This document shows positions 20,488-45,205 of a stretch of 53,054 nucleotides of DNA, piece after piece. The notes beneath the pieces are model-generated. The model had not been told where the DNA came from. It saw nothing but the letters and a program-made list of their open reading frames with translations, and did not search any database. This stretch comes from Anaerolineae bacterium (GTDB taxonomy: Bacteria; Chloroflexota; Anaerolineae; Aggregatilineales; UBA3940), in NCBI GenBank assembly GCA_016927375.1, contig JAFGMS010000460.1, forward strand, positions 1 to 53,054. Direction: 5' to 3'. Position 1 is the first letter of the stretch, and each line of letters begins with the position of its first letter. The position numbers and the translations under genes were made by a program.

Positions 20488-21957
20488 ATGAGAGTGATTG
20501 TTGTGGGGATGGGGCCCGGTGATCCTGGACAGTTGACGCGCCAGGCGTGGAATGTGCTCAGCCGGGCAGGTGAGGTTTATTTGCGGACCCGCAGTCATCC
20601 CACTGTGCCTCAGCTGCCGGAGGGACCGGACTATCACAGCTTCGATGATCTGTATGAGCAGGCCACCGATTTCGAGCAGGTCTATGAGACGATTGTCGAG
20701 CAATTGGTATCTCTGGCATCCGAGGGTAGGGAGGTCATCTATGCTGTGCCGGGCGACCCCCTGGTAGGTGAGGGGACCGTAACGCGTCTGGCGGCGGTAT
20801 GTAAAGCAAAGCAGATCGATTTCCTTATCATTCATGGTGTTAGCTTCGTCGAGCCTGCCCTGGCTGTGCTGGGGTTGGACGGTATTTCGGGCATCCAGCT
20901 GCTTGATGCCACCGACTTTGTTGCTGCCTATCATCCCCAGATCAACCCTGATCGCGGTGCGCTGGTGGCACAGGTCTACAGCCAGCAGTTGGCTTCAGAT
21001 GTCAAGCTGACCCTGATGAACCAATACCCTGACGATCATCCGGTCACATTGATCCACGCCGCGGGTACATCGGAGCAGCGTAGTGAGACGCTCCCCCTTT
21101 ACGAGATGGACCGCCGGCCCGTCTCTCATCTGACGACGCTCTATATCGCCCCATTTAGTGCCGACGGGGGCGTTTCGAGCTTCGAGGGTTTCCAGGAGAC
21201 CATCGCCCATCTGCGCTCTCCTGAAGGCTGCCCCTGGGATCGTGAGCAAACGCACCAGAGCCTGCGTCCTCACCTGATCGAAGAGGCCTATGAAGTGCTG
21301 GATGCCATCGATGCAGATGATGTCGATAAGCTGCGCGAGGAGTTGGGCGATTTACTACTTCAGGTCGTCTTGCACAGCCAGGTCGCAGTCGATGAGGGCG
21401 AGTTCCATATGGCCGATGTCATCCGCAATATCGATGCCAAGCTCAAGCGGCGCCACCCTCACGTTTGGGGGCAGGTCGATGTGCAGGGCGACCCTGATCG
21501 GGTTTTGACTAATTGGGAGCAGATCAAGGCTCAGGAGCGAGCCGACAATGGCCAGGAGACTCGCAGCTTGCTCGATGGTATCCCGAAGACATTACCTGCA
21601 TTGGCCCAGGCTCACGAGTATGACGACCGTGCCGTGCGCGTTGGGTTCGACTGGCCGGATGAGCAGGGCGTGATCGATAAGGTCCATGAGGAGCTGGATG
21701 AGCTGTTGGCGGCCGCCACACCTGAAGAACGCCTGCACGAGATCGGCGATTTGCTGTTCGTGATTGCGGTCTGGGCGCGTTGGCTGAAGCTCAGCCCGGA
21801 AGATGCCCTCCGGGCGGCCAATCGACGTTTCTATGAGCGCTTTTCGAGGATAGAGCGTCGCGCCAAACAGATGGGCCGTTCGCTGCGCGAGATGAGTATC
21901 GAGGAAATGGATATACTCTGGAACGAGGCCAAACGAGACCTCGCCGCCGGTAAGTGA
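20488..21957 (+). CDS. YabN-like fusion: tetrapyrrole-methylase-fold domain + MazG NTP pyrophosphohydrolase
   Basis: 489 aa. N-terminus VVGMGPGDPGQLT is the TP-methylase fold. The C-terminal half carries two MazG repeats (EEAYEVLDAI...ELGDLLLQV and HEELDELL...EIGDLLF). Confidence 0.85.
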   Translation: MRVIVVGMGPGDPGQLTRQAWNVLSRAGEVYLRTRSHPTVPQLPEGPDYHSFDDLYEQATDFEQVYETIVEQLVSLASEGREVIYAVPGDPLVGEGTVTRLAAVCKAKQIDFLIIHGVSFVEPALAVLGLDGISGIQLLDATDFVAAYHPQINPDRGALVAQVYSQQLASDVKLTLMNQYPDDHPVTLIHAAGTSEQRSETLPLYEMDRRPVSHLTTLYIAPFSADGGVSSFEGFQETIAHLRSPEGCPWDREQTHQSLRPHLIEEAYEVLDAIDADDVDKLREELGDLLLQVVLHSQVAVDEGEFHMADVIRNIDAKLKRRHPHVWGQVDVQGDPDRVLTNWEQIKAQERADNGQETRSLLDGIPKTLPALAQAHEYDDRAVRVGFDWPDEQGVIDKVHEELDELLAAATPEERLHEIGDLLFVIAVWARWLKLSPEDALRAANRRFYERFSRIERRAKQMGRSLREMSIEEMDILWNEAKRDLAAGK

Positions 21958-21990
21958 AGATGGGTATTGTGCTTTTGTGCAAACGAAAAA

Positions 21991-22016
21991 CAGGTCTTCT
22001 AAGCTTAGAAGACCTG
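21991..22016 (-). terminator. Perfect 26-nt palindrome: terminator for tRNA-Pro, possibly bidirectional
   Basis: CAGGTCTTCTAAGCTTAGAAGACCTG gives an 11-bp stem. On the minus strand it is followed by TTTTT. It lies between the mazG-like stop and the tRNA 3' end. Confidence 0.6.
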
Positions 22017-22022
22017 TGTCAG

Positions 22023-22097
22023 TCGGGGCGGGCGGACTTGAACCGCCGACCTCACGGACCCGAACCGTGCGCGCTGGCCAAACTGCGCTACGCCCCG
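22023..22097 (-). tRNA. tRNA-Pro (anticodon CGG)
   Basis: Hand-folded 75-nt cloverleaf. Acceptor CGGGGCG/CGCCCCG, D stem GCGC/GCGC, anticodon stem CACGG/CCGTG with loop TTCGGGT, T arm GGCGG-TTCAAGT-CCGCC. CCA is not encoded. Confidence 0.9.
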
Positions 22098-22137
22098 TCT
22101 GTATTGTGCCTCCATCATTGATGGAACAATGGCTGGT

Positions 22138-22166
22138 AGTATAGCGCACCGCTATTAGCTTGACAA
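22138..22166 (-). promoter_or_regulatory. Putative sigma70-type promoter of tRNA-Pro
   Basis: Minus strand reads TTGTCA-17 nt-TATACT, ending about 40 nt upstream of the mature tRNA 5' end. Confidence 0.5.
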
Positions 22167-22258
22167 AAACCATTAGTGCGTATTTCGTTGGCGTTGTGCG
22201 ACTTCTTGGATACAGATCGGTTTGTACCTGTTTCCGGCAAGCATGTGACCTGCCCCCA

Positions 22259-22411
22259 TTTCCTATAAGGACCTGCTCGATTTCCAGTAAGGATGTACTC
22301 GAATTCCTATAAGGATTCACTCCGGATCCTATAAGGATCGGATCGTTTCCAGTAAGGATTTGATCCATTTCCTGTGAGGATCCGGAGCGTTTCCTATGAG
22401 GATTTGGCCTG
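22259..22411. repeat. Seven tandem 21-22-bp units with core TTTCCTATAAGGAT
   Basis: Units start at 22259, 22281, 22303, 22325, 22346, 22368 and 22390. Cores are TCCTATAAGGA (x3), TCCAGTAAGGA (x2), TCCTGTGAGGA and TCCTATGAGGA. Confidence 0.9.
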
Positions 22412-22540
22412 GTTGAAGGTAGGATTTTGCACTCTCCAGCCTTACCTGTATAACGAAATATACCTACGAATAGATAGGATATTGACATATATAGACGGCG
22501 TGTGCTACAGTATTTGTAGTCCTTTCTGGCTTGTTGGCTT

Positions 22541-22569
22541 TTGTCGGCCAATGGTGTAAAGAGTATACT
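22541..22569 (+). promoter_or_regulatory. Putative promoter of the pfkB cluster
   Basis: TTGTCG-17 nt-TATACT, 43 nt upstream of ATG 22612. An alternative is TTGACA-18 nt-TACAGT at 22482-22511. Confidence 0.35.
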
Positions 22570-22611
22570 CTGTCAGTCATCCAATTTACCTGAAAGGACA
22601 CTCCAATTACT

Positions 22612-23529
22612 ATGGATATTGTTGGCATTGGTAACCCTGTTTACGACTACATCAAGACCCCCAAAGTGGATACAAAGACACGCATTCTTTCGGGCTGTTC
22701 GACCAATGCCTGCCTGGCTGCCCGCAAGTTGGAGGCCCAGACGATGCTGGTCGGCTGTGTCGGCGATGATTTCGGTGGCCCGTTCAAAACCGCGTTGGAA
22801 GGATATGGCATCGATAGCTATACCTATCCGTCACCGGAAACAGGGGGCTTCAGCCTGATATACTATGATACCCTGGGTAATCGCACTCTGGATGTGCTGG
22901 GGCAGGCCTCTGCTGTGCCCGATATTCCTGTCGACGTCGTGTCATCTGCCGACTTTGTTATCATCGGGCCGATCTTGGGAGAAGTTTCTCTCTCTCTGGT
23001 CAGGAAGATCAAGGCAGCCGTTAATGGCCAGATTCTGCTCGATCCACAAGGGCTGCTCCGTCGTATCAATTCAGATGGACGCATTGAGCATTATCGCAAC
23101 CCTGAAGTCGATGCCATCATCCCCTTATGTGATGTTGTCAAAGCCAACGAGGTCGAGGCAGAGATCATCACCGGCATTCATCCTCGTACGAGCGAAGATG
23201 CACTCCGCCGGGCAACTGAGATGCTGCATGGTCTGGGCTGCCGGATAGCCATCGTTACGTTGGCGGCTGAGGGCTCAGCAGCCTATGATGGCCAGACCTA
23301 TATCCGGGTGCCGGCCTATGCAACCAATGCCGTCGATCCTACCGGGGCTGGCGATACCTATGCGGCAGGTTTCGCCGTAGGCTATTTGAAGCATGCTACC
23401 ATCAAAGGAGCCTGCTATTATGGTTCCTGTGTAGCTTCGGTGATGGTAGAAAATGTCGGCCCCGATTTCCCGTTGACTTCTGAAGAGGCAGACCGGCGTT
23501 GGGAAAGGTTAATACAGAATGGTCGATAA
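22612..23529 (+). CDS. PfkB-family (ribokinase-like) carbohydrate kinase
   Basis: 305 aa. Signature DPTGAGDTYAAGF near the C-terminus and GIGNPVYD at the N-terminus. Confidence 0.85.
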   Translation: MDIVGIGNPVYDYIKTPKVDTKTRILSGCSTNACLAARKLEAQTMLVGCVGDDFGGPFKTALEGYGIDSYTYPSPETGGFSLIYYDTLGNRTLDVLGQASAVPDIPVDVVSSADFVIIGPILGEVSLSLVRKIKAAVNGQILLDPQGLLRRINSDGRIEHYRNPEVDAIIPLCDVVKANEVEAEIITGIHPRTSEDALRRATEMLHGLGCRIAIVTLAAEGSAAYDGQTYIRVPAYATNAVDPTGAGDTYAAGFAVGYLKHATIKGACYYGSCVASVMVENVGPDFPLTSEEADRRWERLIQNGR

Positions 23530-35893: not shown

Positions 35894-37633
35894 GTGAAGT
35901 CGAAAGAGAAGAAAAATTCCCTGCAATGGTATAGGATGGATTTGCACATCCACACGCCTGCTTCGAAGGATTACCAGCAGGCGGATGTGACTTATATGGA
36001 TATTCTTCAACAGGCCGAGCGTCGCAATCTCGACATTATAGCTTTCACCGATCACAATACTGTCCAGGGCTATCATGAGGTACTTGAGGAAATCCACCAG
36101 CTTGAGCTACTGGAAAGTCTGGAACGTATCAACGTTGATGAGCAACGTCGCCTTAATGAATATCATCGTCTCTTTCAGACCATGATGATCTTACCGGGGT
36201 TCGAGTTTACGGCGACCTTCGGATTTCATATATTGGGGATATTTGCTCCGCAAACTGACGTGAGATATCTCGAACATCTGCTGCTGGATTTGAATATTCC
36301 GCCTGAGGCGCTGGACAGCGGCGAGACGAATGTGGGCGCCTCTGCCGATGTTTTGACGGCCTACGCGGCTATCCGGCAGGCTGGTGGGATTGTCATTGCT
36401 GCGCATGCAAACTCCAACCATGGCGTGGCCATGCGAGGGTTGTCCTTTGGTGGCCAGACTCGTATTGCTTATACCCAGGACCTGAATTTGCATGCCCTGG
36501 AAGTCACCGATCTGGATCGTCGTGGGAGGCACACCACGGCTCGTTTCTTTGATGGGTCCAAGCCGGAGTATCCTCGGCGCATGCGGTGTATTCAGGCCTC
36601 TGATGCACATCGTCTGGATCGGGACCCGCGCAATGCCAAGAATCTCGGTCTGGGTGAGCGTGTCACTGAAATTCAACTGCCGGAGCTAAGCTTCGAGGCA
36701 ATTTATGAGGTCTTCTCCGGCAATGACTTTGCTCGCACGCGGCCCTATCGCGGGAGCACGGCACCTTACGATCATGTGTTGGCGGCCCGCCAGGAAGGCC
36801 CTTCGATTGTGCAGTCTTTCCATGAGAGTATGGCTCAGCGGGGCGGGCGGTTGTACAGCGTCATTGCTGATGTGTGTGGTTTTGCTAACACCAATGGTGG
36901 AACGCTCTATGTGGGTGTTTCTGCCGATGCAAAAGCCAAGCCGGTAGGTGTTTCCAATATTAACCGTGCGGTGGAGCAACTCAAGAGTGAGATCCAGAGC
37001 AAGATGACCCCACCCATTGACGCTCAGGTAGATGTGCTGAAGACACAAGGTGTATCGGTGATCCGAGTCCAGGTGCCTCCTGGGAGTGAGCCGCCTTATG
37101 CCATTGATGACTACAAGATCTATGTTCGAGATGAGACAGAGACCAGCCTGGCGGTACGTGATGAAATTGTCCAGCTTGTGTTGCGTAGTCCTCAAGTACA
37201 AGAAGCGGTAGCTGCTCAGCCGGAGGACGCCGAGACGGAGGACATGGGTGTGTCGCCCGTTGGTTATGTTGAGCCTCCTCGCACAGGTGTGGAGGTGATC
37301 GCTACTGAGAAGCGCAACAAAATTCTTTACCATCATGTTCGGGATTTGCGCAATGGTAACATCGTCCGTAACGTGACGCGCGGATCGGCACGCAAGCTGT
37401 GGCATTATGCCATTACCCAGGTTGAAGATCACACTGTTGATGTGGACAAGCTGGGCTGGCACGGAGATATCTCGCTGATCCGGGAGTACAAACACGGCAG
37501 TAAGATGCACTACGATCTGGCTCAACGTCTCAACGGGACTGTGCATATTTACTACGGAGTCACCGAGAATGGCATTCAGGATGGGGCGCATGCTGCCTGG
37601 CGTGAACTGCTTGGGCTGGAAGAAGAGGAGTAA
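35894..37633 (+). CDS. PHP-domain phosphoesterase fused to an AlbA_2 (Schlafen-like) domain and an unassigned C-terminal domain
   Basis: 579 aa. PHP metal ligands DLHIHT, FTDHN, GFEF, AAHANS and ASDAH. AlbA_2-like block CGFANTNGGTLYVGVSAD...VIRVQVPPGSEPPY. The last ~130 aa are unrecognised. Confidence 0.75.
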   Translation: MKSKEKKNSLQWYRMDLHIHTPASKDYQQADVTYMDILQQAERRNLDIIAFTDHNTVQGYHEVLEEIHQLELLESLERINVDEQRRLNEYHRLFQTMMILPGFEFTATFGFHILGIFAPQTDVRYLEHLLLDLNIPPEALDSGETNVGASADVLTAYAAIRQAGGIVIAAHANSNHGVAMRGLSFGGQTRIAYTQDLNLHALEVTDLDRRGRHTTARFFDGSKPEYPRRMRCIQASDAHRLDRDPRNAKNLGLGERVTEIQLPELSFEAIYEVFSGNDFARTRPYRGSTAPYDHVLAARQEGPSIVQSFHESMAQRGGRLYSVIADVCGFANTNGGTLYVGVSADAKAKPVGVSNINRAVEQLKSEIQSKMTPPIDAQVDVLKTQGVSVIRVQVPPGSEPPYAIDDYKIYVRDETETSLAVRDEIVQLVLRSPQVQEAVAAQPEDAETEDMGVSPVGYVEPPRTGVEVIATEKRNKILYHHVRDLRNGNIVRNVTRGSARKLWHYAITQVEDHTVDVDKLGWHGDISLIREYKHGSKMHYDLAQRLNGTVHIYYGVTENGIQDGAHAAWRELLGLEEEE

Positions 37634-41730: not shown

Positions 41731-41814
41731 ATTTTCTAGGCTAGAAAATTGTTTTTCTAGCCTACAAACTTGATTTTCCAGCCTAGAAAGTTGCTTTACC
41801 AGCCTACAAATCAC
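41731..41814. repeat. Four tandem 21-bp units (TTTTCTAGCCTAGAAANTTG-like)
   Basis: Unit 1 (41731) is ATTTTCTAGGCTAGAAAATTG. Unit 2 (41752) is TTTTTCTAGCCTACAAACTTG. Unit 3 (41773) is ATTTTCCAGCCTAGAAAGTTG. Unit 4 (41794) is CTTTACCAGCCTACAAATCAC. Unit 1 contains the palindrome TTTTCTAG-G-CTAGAAAA. Confidence 0.9.
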
Positions 41815-42231
41815 AGTCTCACGCCGGGGAAAACACAATTTCCCTCGGCGTGAAATTTGTTACCCCAGAGCTCATTGCAGAAAAGAACGGACGGGAAAAC
41901 AAAACAGGGTAGGCGAGGTGAGTGGTTTTGCCTAGCGGGAGTGTTCAAGGAGACGCTGTAATGATGCCAGCAGGTAAGCAGATCGGCTCCACGTGGGGAT
42001 TGGGGAAGTTGTGCTGTGGTGGAAATCCATGCTACAGTACCAAAATGCACGGGGCCTAAGAAAGTTACGCACTGCCAACGTAATCTCAGCGTTCCGGCGC
42101 CGCAACTGGTTCTGCGAGCTATGCGTACAGTATGGTAAGAGGTGATGCAACCAATCGTGGTGTGTATCTCAGATCAAAAACTGAGAGCCGGCAGCTGATT
42201 GCTGAAAGCTTACCTGCGAGAGAGGAAATGT

Positions 42232-44478: not shown

Positions 44479-44552
44479 AGTCTCTCCTAGAGTGTGGTGG
44501 ATGGTGGTCAACTGCCATAATTCTAGTCCCTACTTCCGATCGTGCAAGAGGA

Positions 44553-44698
44553 TTAGTACAGTTGGGTCTAAATAGACCCGGAGTTAGAATGCGCTTCTTG
44601 CCCAACTGTTTAAGTGTTCCATGGCAAGCCACAACTAAGGGTTTACTTAGGCCTCGGAACACTGGTGTTTCGCGGCAGAGAACGCCGAGAGCGCAGAG
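44553..44698. repeat. Mosaic repeat copy C (reverse unit + half of central module) abutting a CTCTGCG-type half repeat
   Basis: 44553-44615 is the reverse complement of the copy A/B unit. 44616-44674 matches the copy B centre (CCACAACTAAGGGTTTACTTAGG...GGAACACTGGTGTTTCGCG). 44673-44698 reads CGGCAGAGAACGCCGAGAGCGCAGAG. Confidence 0.8.
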
Positions 44699-44894
44699 AA
44701 AAAAACCAGAAGATTGCATCAGTAATCCCAGCGGCAAACCTCCAAAGAGGGAATCGCTGATATGTGTTCACTTGAGAGCCCATTATTGATCATTGTCCTT
44801 TTCCGGCTGTGCAAACCGGTTGTCATTGCTGCGAAGGTCGGAACGGTATTAAGCCGTCGCTGGAAGCCTGGTGGTGATATCATGTTGACACTTG

Positions 44895-44960
44895 TGGAGA
44901 TAACAGGATATATCGGTGGAGATAACAGGACATATCGGTGAGGATAATAGCACTTGTCTC
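44895..44960. repeat. About three tandem 22-bp units
   Basis: GTGGAGATAACAGGATATATCG, then GTGGAGATAACAGGACATATCG, then the degenerate GTGAGGATAATAGCACTTGTCT. Confidence 0.85.
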
Positions 44961-45205
44961 TTGATGCTCGATGCTCGTTACTCAAAACATTCCCATCGAG
45001 GCAAGACGTTGTTACCAATCACTAACAACTATTTTCAGAGGAGTGGTCTATGAGCAAAAGCTCGCCAATGGGAGTGAAAATAGCAGCGGCTTGTAAGTGA
45101 TTGTGGCGTATGGATTCCCGCTTTCGTGGGAATGACAGAATTGGCGAAGGCCGGTTATGCTGAGGCTTGTGATAGCAGTAGGCACATACAAAGCACAAAG
45201 CTTTA

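Follow-up and report, generated by a model that had tools for sequence, protein, structure and literature searches.

Dispersed 22-bp tandem-repeat arrays with palindromic cores in Anaerolineae and Thermoflexia as putative, probably mobile protein-recognition elements

We report that a phased tandem array lying between the divergent tRNA-Pro and pfkB genes of an uncultured Anaerolineae bacterium is, in a reading that we hold at roughly even confidence, one copy of a dispersed, lineage-specific and probably mobile family of intergenic tandem repeats of the Anaerolineae and Thermoflexia, the palindromic cores of which would serve as recognition sites for a protein. The array was found in a 53,054-nucleotide stretch of DNA (hereafter the window, meaning the whole stretch), which is a housekeeping segment of the chromosome; it is an insertion at the tRNA-Pro/pfkB locus and not a control element built for its neighbours. 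The family unit is a 22-bp module with a conserved near-palindromic core, TTCC-N-R-T-R-A-GGA-W, followed by a free spacer.

The array comprises seven head-to-tail units on the plus strand, starting at positions 22259, 22281, 22303, 22325, 22346, 22368 and 22390, with successive periods of 22, 22, 22, 21, 22 and 22 bp; the sequence itself agrees exactly with the unit number, starts and periods of the original prediction, and TRF called 22-bp arrays over 22260-22406. Each unit combines a TTTCCTATAAGGAT-like segment with 7-8 variable nucleotides. The 13-mer TTCCTATAAGGAT, at up to two mismatches, occurs seven times within the array and once elsewhere in the 53 kb (48213); the chance expectation at up to three mismatches is about 8.7 per 53 kb, and seven occurrences in 153 bp lie far above it. 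No TTCC-N5-GGA[AT] site was found in the window outside the array. The palindrome arm positions (T3, C4 and C5 on one side; A10, G11, G12 and A13 on the other) show 0/49 mismatches across the seven units, as against mismatches at 23 of 55 cells in the 8-nt spacers (Fisher p=2.8e-8), and mean pairwise identity among the units is 81% in the core and 41% in the spacer. This pattern of constrained arms and free spacers fits sequence-specific recognition, probably by a protein.

The centre of the core reads W-R-T-R-A on the plus strand in every unit of the window array, and because this centre is asymmetric each unit is polar. The spacing had been taken to place all seven cores on the same face of the helix, a geometry typical of cooperative binding by a dimer. 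The first part of this claim is only approximately correct: the phasing is about two turns, but the six steps of the array amount to 131 bp, and a helix of 10.5 bp per turn makes 12.5 turns over that length. Only with a helical repeat near 10.9-11 bp would the first and last cores escape an offset of about half a turn. As to the second, a phased recognition array with constrained arms is plausible. The drift of about half a turn over the array, 22 bp not being exactly two turns, and the conserved asymmetry of the core centre, which a symmetric dimer would not need, tell against the explanation favoured here.

To the right of the last full unit lies a degenerate eighth unit with a short tail (Table 1), and as other copies in the same metagenome share both, we place the right-hand boundary of the repeated element at about 22442. 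The higher-order imperfect inverted repeat within the array is a product of the palindromic cores and the GGATCC/TCCGGA-type spacers. A foldback element with terminal inverted repeats was considered and rejected, as the complementarity between the spacers of units 3/4 and those of units 5/6 is accounted for by repeated GGATCC/TCCGGA palindromes, with the core centres remaining direct. Comparison of the left end of the array with its reverse-complemented right end scored no better than 26/300 shuffles, and no target-site duplications were seen at the arrays. An 11-nt inverted pair around the array (22162/22535) was likewise set aside as being at chance level, its left arm being the conserved -35 box of the tRNA.

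Table 1. Features of the array, its surroundings and related repeats (window coordinates unless a contig is named)
Feature	Position	Strand	Remarks
TP_methylase-MazG fusion	20488-21957		left of array
tRNA-Pro (CGG)	22022..22097	-	left neighbour, transcribed away from array; terminator present
tRNA-Pro promoter-like site, TTGTCA-17-TATACT	22138..22166	-	kept in closest relative, which itself lacks the array
Seven tandem units	22259..22411	+	14-nt core TTTCC-WRTRA-GGAT plus 7-8-nt variable spacer
Higher-order imperfect inverted repeat	22302..22405	.	arms 22302-22337 and 22370-22405, 72% complementary
Degenerate eighth unit (GTTGAAGGTAGGAT) and short tail	22412..22442	+	both carried by copies elsewhere in same metagenome
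Best pfkB promoter-like site, TTGACA-18-TACAGT, upstream TG	22482..22511	+	71 bp downstream of last full unit
Second, weaker pfkB promoter-like site	22541-22569	+	130 bp beyond array end
PfkB-family carbohydrate kinase gene	22612..23529	+	right neighbour
Second array	41731-41810	.	3.8 units of 21 bp, palindromic core TTTTCTAG-N-CTAGAAAA
Third tandem repeat	44894-44947		22 bp, 2.5 copies, GTGGAGATAACAGGAYATATCG; in long gene-free stretch ~44491-45156
REP-like hairpin, contig L091	1087-1150		just 3' of array
REP-like hairpin, contig L103	2850-2980		just 5' of array

The array is non-coding, as originally proposed: the sole ORF across it (21592-22551, minus strand) also crosses the tRNA gene. Downstream of pfkB come the genes for a CDP-alcohol phosphatidyltransferase and Lgt, an arrangement shared with the relatives, and elsewhere the window codes for Lon, Hsp20, RecG, NusB, FabD/FabG-like enzymes and similar proteins. 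From the start of the array to the -35 box of tRNA-Pro is 93 bp, in keeping with the distance of about 95 bp first given; the corresponding figure of about 130 bp on the pfkB side applies to the weaker promoter-like site, whereas the better one is considerably closer (Table 1). An A+T-rich stretch (22447-22500) follows the repeats. No transposase, rep or par gene was found in the 53-kb window, and no regulator gene near the array. At some distance (35894-37633) the window also contains an ORF with an N-terminal PHP domain and a Schlafen/AlbA_2 domain.

We sought relatives of PfkB in 185,579 species genomes. The two closest, from the Anaerolineae MAGs L002 (JAFGLD01, Zod_Metabat.387; 79% identity) and L003 (74%), are encoded divergently from tRNA-Pro(CGG) as in the window, and in L002 the -35 and -10 elements of the tRNA promoter are preserved almost base for base. 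Yet the tRNA-Pro/pfkB intergenic regions of these genomes, at 223 bp (L002) and 83 bp (L003) versus 514 bp in the window, contain no TCC-N5-GGA site, and the array is absent; the array together with its surrounding sequence is thus a lineage-specific gain. Apart from the 22-bp arrays, JAFGLD01 carries an unrelated repeat of about 60-85 bp that is also dispersed (L083 6006-6080; L098 1256-1330; L002 5151-5208 and 6993-7076); two of its copies fall within the region that is syntenic with the window.

Further copies in the same genome were evident from the sediment metagenome X1, the only run in which the window locus is present; the depths that follow are those of assembler (Logan) contigs of a metagenome and not of a closed genome. 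The X1 contig with pfkB begins within the last unit of the array, and the flanks of the window locus have a depth of 66-75x. In at least six further contigs (210-2500 nt, depth 66-81), a stretch of 39-61 nt is 88-97% identical to the array, and the sequence then passes into different flanks. Summed over contigs, the depth climbs to 260-370 at units 1-2 and to 390-540 across unit 7 and the degenerate unit (22389-22432), compared with about 75 in the flank, and is about 70-100 at units 3-5, the ends of the array being better conserved among the copies than its middle. One 904-nt contig reproduces 22382-22442 with two differences and is divergent beyond, a G>A change at 22412 is seen on four contigs, and the degenerate end unit (TTG-M-AGGTAGGATTTT) is repeated in other copies. 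That multi-unit stretches and this characteristic end unit are common to the copies indicates that complete arrays have been duplicated to further sites, in a genome of equal abundance.

Beyond this genome, multi-locus arrays with the core TTCC-N-R-T-R-A-GGA and a period of 22 bp, rarely 21, were found in about ten Chloroflexota MAGs of the Anaerolineae and Thermoflexia. A three-unit pattern (TTCCNNTNAGGA, with gaps permitting periods of 21-23 bp) scanned over the species-genome collection recovered 48 loci, 15 of them in Chloroflexota and several per genome (four in JAFGLD01, three in Anaerolineales MFD05764, two in Thermoflexales S014_19, and others), and a two-unit pattern (TTCCNGTNAGGAA) recovered 29 loci, 13 of them in Chloroflexota; since such patterns fix the arms, part of the arm conservation seen between genomes follows from the way the search was set up. 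The cores of the family are TTTCCCGTAAGGAAA, TTCCAGT(A/C/G)AGGAA or the window type TCCTATAAGGAT, and the spacers are unrelated between genomes. An array consists of three to eight or more head-to-tail units, all directly oriented apart from rare end units and nearly identical to one another in some arrays (JAFGLD, L120). Many arrays lie at contig ends. In JAFGLD01, which comes from the same study as X1, the unit words reach about 1594x against a genome depth of 17-20x, corresponding to roughly 80-90 units, with just four arrays assembled; an exact-unit scan for the JAFGLD01-type unit returned the four contigs already known and no more. The motif therefore recurs elsewhere in the form of arrays, both in the window genome and in these MAGs, so that the original prediction is not refuted by the array being a simple minisatellite lacking the motif at other sites.

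The genes beside the other arrays code for LiaF-like, GT2, Tad and Tex proteins, a cyclase/TPR protein, a PD-(D/E)XK nuclease, an ABC ATPase, a Ser/Thr kinase, a hydrolase and BNR proteins. No neighbour family recurs across the array loci as a candidate partner, no tRNA gene lies near any of 18 other arrays, and no transposase, RAYT-type (Y1_Tnp) or Rep gene was found among the flanking proteins scanned.

Several individual loci deserve mention in their own right. The array of L113 (4435-4641) interrupts a type I-E cas operon at the junction of cse2 and cas7, and its last unit is inverted, making a 14-bp hairpin. Two JAFGLD01 arrays share about 70 bp of upstream sequence at 86% identity (L083 7559-7630; L098 159-230), which is either a leader-like part of the element or a second, adjoining repeat. 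The two arrays of Thermoflexales S014_19 (L091, L103) abut the same REP-like hairpin, GCGACGCACTTC-NN-AAGTGC-N-TCGC, on opposite sides. Contigs binned as Pirellulales (L126) and Acidobacteriota (L097) carry 22-bp arrays of the AGGAT type seen in the window (TCCTATAAGGATTTG; TTTCCCGTAAGGATC), and these could reflect horizontal spread or mis-binned Chloroflexota contigs. Finally, GATC occurs five times in the 153 bp of the window array (22259-22411), mostly as GGATC(C/G) at core-spacer junctions; it is also present in the units of JAFGLD01, MFD05764, L097, L126 and L114, and absent from those of L091, L103, L113 and L120.

The window contains additional arrays with other sequences, its three best TRF tandem repeats having periods of 22, 21 and 22 bp (Table 1). 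The second array lies in a 576-bp gene-free stretch, with genes for an MFS transporter and a DUF1232 protein on either side, and is followed by a hairpin with a 13-bp stem (41816-41860). It too is multi-copy in X1, at 420-610x versus 60-89x for single contigs, with different flanks and variant cores, and so represents an element of the same type built on another palindrome. Over the third repeat, no X1 contig was found in the portion of the run that was covered. The near-identical periods of the three independent arrays fit a constraint tied to the helical repeat of DNA. Comparable arrangements were seen in termite-gut Treponema MAGs, where 23-bp arrays with the core ATTCCAGTAAGGAAT reach up to 47 units (L088 3085-4160; L112 5819-6362; L140 5068-5603) in unrelated contexts (uridine kinase, FMN reductase, GNAT, HtrA, L25), and where the same contigs bear other 21-23-bp arrays with different palindromes. 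The search pattern was also matched by 21-bp arrays of Prevotellaceae and Flavobacterium, the contexts in Bacteroidota being unrelated. We do not claim homology across these phyla, as the pattern fixes 11 of the 13 core bases and, among all tandem repeats, chance alone should yield a handful of such families.

Comparison with known systems suggests that the array would work most like an iteron or centromere array, as a set of phased protein sites, and is most like REP/BIME, MIRU or STRR elements in its distribution, while lacking defining features of each. REP/BIME elements of enterobacteria and pseudomonads are similarly extragenic, dispersed, multi-copy and lineage-specific, consist of small palindromes, are not conserved at orthologous sites, and are tolerated within operons and at 3' ends, often beside terminators. 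REPs are 20-40-nt G+C-rich stable hairpins, usually in clusters of alternating orientation and tied to a RAYT transposase; in contrast, the present arrays are built of 13-15-bp palindromes with weak, A/T-rich arms, strictly head to tail at a fixed 22-bp period, with no RAYT among the flanking proteins scanned and unit hairpins no better than shuffles. The mycobacterial MIRU and cyanobacterial STRR/LTRR repeats are likewise tandem at many intergenic loci, including operons, with unit numbers that vary by locus. MIRU units measure 40-100 bp, which sets them apart from the 22-bp units described here, and STRR units 7 bp; to our knowledge neither has a palindromic core at a period of two helical turns.

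Iterons of the Rep_3/pi type, such as the seven 22-bp repeats of the R6K gamma origin, match the window array in unit number, length and head-to-tail phasing, and the conserved core of the array units, beside a more variable remainder, points to one protein for every 22 bp, so that the phased loading of protein may be alike. Iterons are non-palindromic, confined to the origin and accompanied by a rep gene and an unwinding element, whereas the present arrays have many chromosomal copies and no rep gene, the window array being flanked by the MazG fusion, tRNA, PfkB, CDP-OH transferase and Lgt genes. Type Ib/II plasmid centromeres (ParR-parC of R1/pSK41; omega heptads) share contiguous short repeats with a similar 20-22-bp phasing, on which small dimeric proteins bind cooperatively into a filament or superhelix, but each is a single site per replicon next to parMR/parAB, unlike the multi-copy array here with no such gene nearby. 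The ends of Tn7/Mu-type transposons also present ~22-bp sites head to tail, and the ends of the present arrays are better conserved than the middle. Such transposon sites are not palindromic and occur at two inverted ends that flank transposition genes, with target duplications; inverted ends, terminal inverted repeats and target-site duplications, as would be expected of these transposons or of MITEs, were not found here.

Three further candidates were rejected. A CRISPR array is incompatible with a 14-bp core and an 8-bp "spacer", CRISPR repeats being 23-50 bp with unique spacers of similar length, and the window has no cas genes. In a sponge RNA of the CsrB/RsmZ type GGA would lie in a loop; here it forms the 3' arm of the palindrome, and neither a bracketing promoter and terminator nor an Rfam match was found. 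The repeat RNA of a type III toxin-antitoxin system has units of ~34-40 nt rather than 22 bp, and the gene downstream, which in such a system codes for an endoRNase toxin after a terminator, is here a PfkB kinase and differs from locus to locus.

Among the alternatives to protein recognition on DNA, we regard as improbable, though the most probable of them, that the arrays act as RNA, either as 3'-UTR or intercistronic stabilisers or terminators in the manner of REP/BIME or as multi-site sponges for an RNA-binding protein, being transcribed with neighbouring genes or from a promoter of their own. Several arrays are indeed flanked by a stop codon and a hairpin, or are located within operons (L091 after tex; L113 between cse2 and cas7), those of L104, L123 and L090 adjoin terminator-like hairpins, and array orientation agrees with the surrounding transcription in six of eight clear cases, a bias that is not significant. 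Furthermore, the metatranscriptome X22 of the same study has two contigs with a JAFGLD-type array, one of them including 134 nt of unique flank, and lacks both single-copy flanks and another multi-copy segment of L098; some JAFGLD-type arrays are thus probably transcribed, although the contigs are strandless and DNA may have been carried over into the RNA run. Neither the window locus nor L104 was found in any RNA run. The whole window array folds better than shuffles (z = -3.6 on the plus and -4.9 on the minus strand), but the hairpins of single units are marginal, at -1.9 to -3.7 kcal/mol and, except for unit 4, no better than shuffles. GGA lies in the stem and not in a loop, and the family arrays show no clear covariation, the TCC/GGA arms being fixed. 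The window array is upstream of both predicted promoters, with no promoter/terminator pair around it, and Rfam returned only the tRNA, both for the whole window at the gathering threshold and for 22100-22620 at E<=10. As the unit hairpins are weak and the sequence of the arms itself, beyond its pairing, is kept across orders, sequence-specific reading is favoured over bare structure. Why families that differ in their cores should all keep a 21-22-bp period is not readily explained at the RNA level, and the period is most simply a property of duplex DNA. With modest confidence, we therefore favour recognition on DNA over a role as RNA.

A more speculative proposal, which we consider somewhat less probable again, is that the arrays are loading platforms for a candidate sequence-specific protein, conserved in the Anaerolineae and Thermoflexia, that would polymerise on the dispersed 22-bp arrays; its paralogues would recognise different palindromes, for instance that of the 21-bp array, and the whole would make up a chromosome-organising, silencing or mobile-DNA system so far undescribed; alternatively, transcribed arrays might titrate an RNA-binding protein.

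It is also unlikely that the family is simply a selfish or neutral dispersed minisatellite, spread and enlarged by slippage or recombination with the aid of its small palindromes and having neither a recognising factor nor a function. Such an origin would agree with the sporadic presence of the arrays among genomes and loci, including their absence from the orthologous site in relatives, with the near-identical units in JAFGLD and L120, which indicate recent local amplification, and with the breaking of assemblies at arrays. Against this, neutral decay would not yield the contrast between fully kept arms and strongly diverged spacers in the window array, and the same core and 22-bp period are found across orders with unrelated spacers.

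We consider it very unlikely that the array is a locus-specific cooperative element, of the UAS/FIS type or an operator, controlling the divergent tRNA-Pro and/or pfkB promoters, a function originally suggested. Its phased palindromic cores do lie between divergent promoter-like sites, 93 and 71 bp from the respective -35 boxes, and a dispersed element could have been co-opted here. However, the conservation at the orthologous stable-RNA promoter that would be expected of a FIS/UAS-type upstream array is lacking in L002 and L003, where tRNA-Pro is kept, in L002 with its -35 and -10 elements, and the array is not; the same arrays stand at many loci beside unrelated genes, 0/18 of them near a tRNA; and no regulator gene is nearby. 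The further suggestion of iterons, or of a centromere serving the partition of a chromosomal or integrated replicon, on the R6K gamma origin and ParR/parC models, is scarcely credible. An A+T-rich stretch does come after the seven direct 22-bp repeats, as in iteron origins, but each genome has many copies, on a housekeeping chromosome with conserved gene order, no adjacent rep or par gene, no DnaA boxes nearby (11 found versus 9.5 expected in the window, without a cluster), no turn in GC skew at the locus and no similar plasmid or phage record. On GC skew and DnaA-box counts, a chromosomal origin (oriC) at the array was likewise rejected.

Returning to the favoured explanation of a mobile family recognised by protein, whole arrays, with their better-conserved ends, have been copied to other sites in the genome, and we posit that a sequence-specific protein, the gene of which lies elsewhere, would recognise their cores in duplex DNA. 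Each core may be occupied by a single protein or dimer, and sites two helical turns apart would allow cooperative binding side by side. The candidate binder may be the enzyme that mobilises the arrays or, alternatively, a host DNA-binding protein of the nucleoid type. The window array would have landed between two divergent promoters by chance, any effect on these promoters being incidental. Predicted protein recognition would explain the conserved arms and array ends; that no trans-acting protein was identified among the proteins flanking the arrays weighs against the favoured explanation, as does the failure to find terminal inverted repeats or target-site duplications.

For proteobacteria, mycobacteria and cyanobacteria, interspersed repeats have been well documented. 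Our literature searches found no description of interspersed repeats for Anaerolineae, nor of these arrays in particular. BLAST of the array against plasmids and phages gave no match, while pattern scans gave two irrelevant matches in IMG/VR and, with an overly strict pattern, one in metagenomes. The Anaerolineae are an abundant and mostly uncultured class, and the family has an unusual build of head-to-tail 22-bp units, each with an invariant small palindrome and a free spacer, such that it looks like a protein-loading array and behaves like mobile DNA. As short-read assemblies of such MAGs break at the arrays, these are under-counted, and they may be taken in error for operators, iterons or questionable CRISPRs. 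Should there be a cognate protein, the arrays would provide ready bait for finding the binder.
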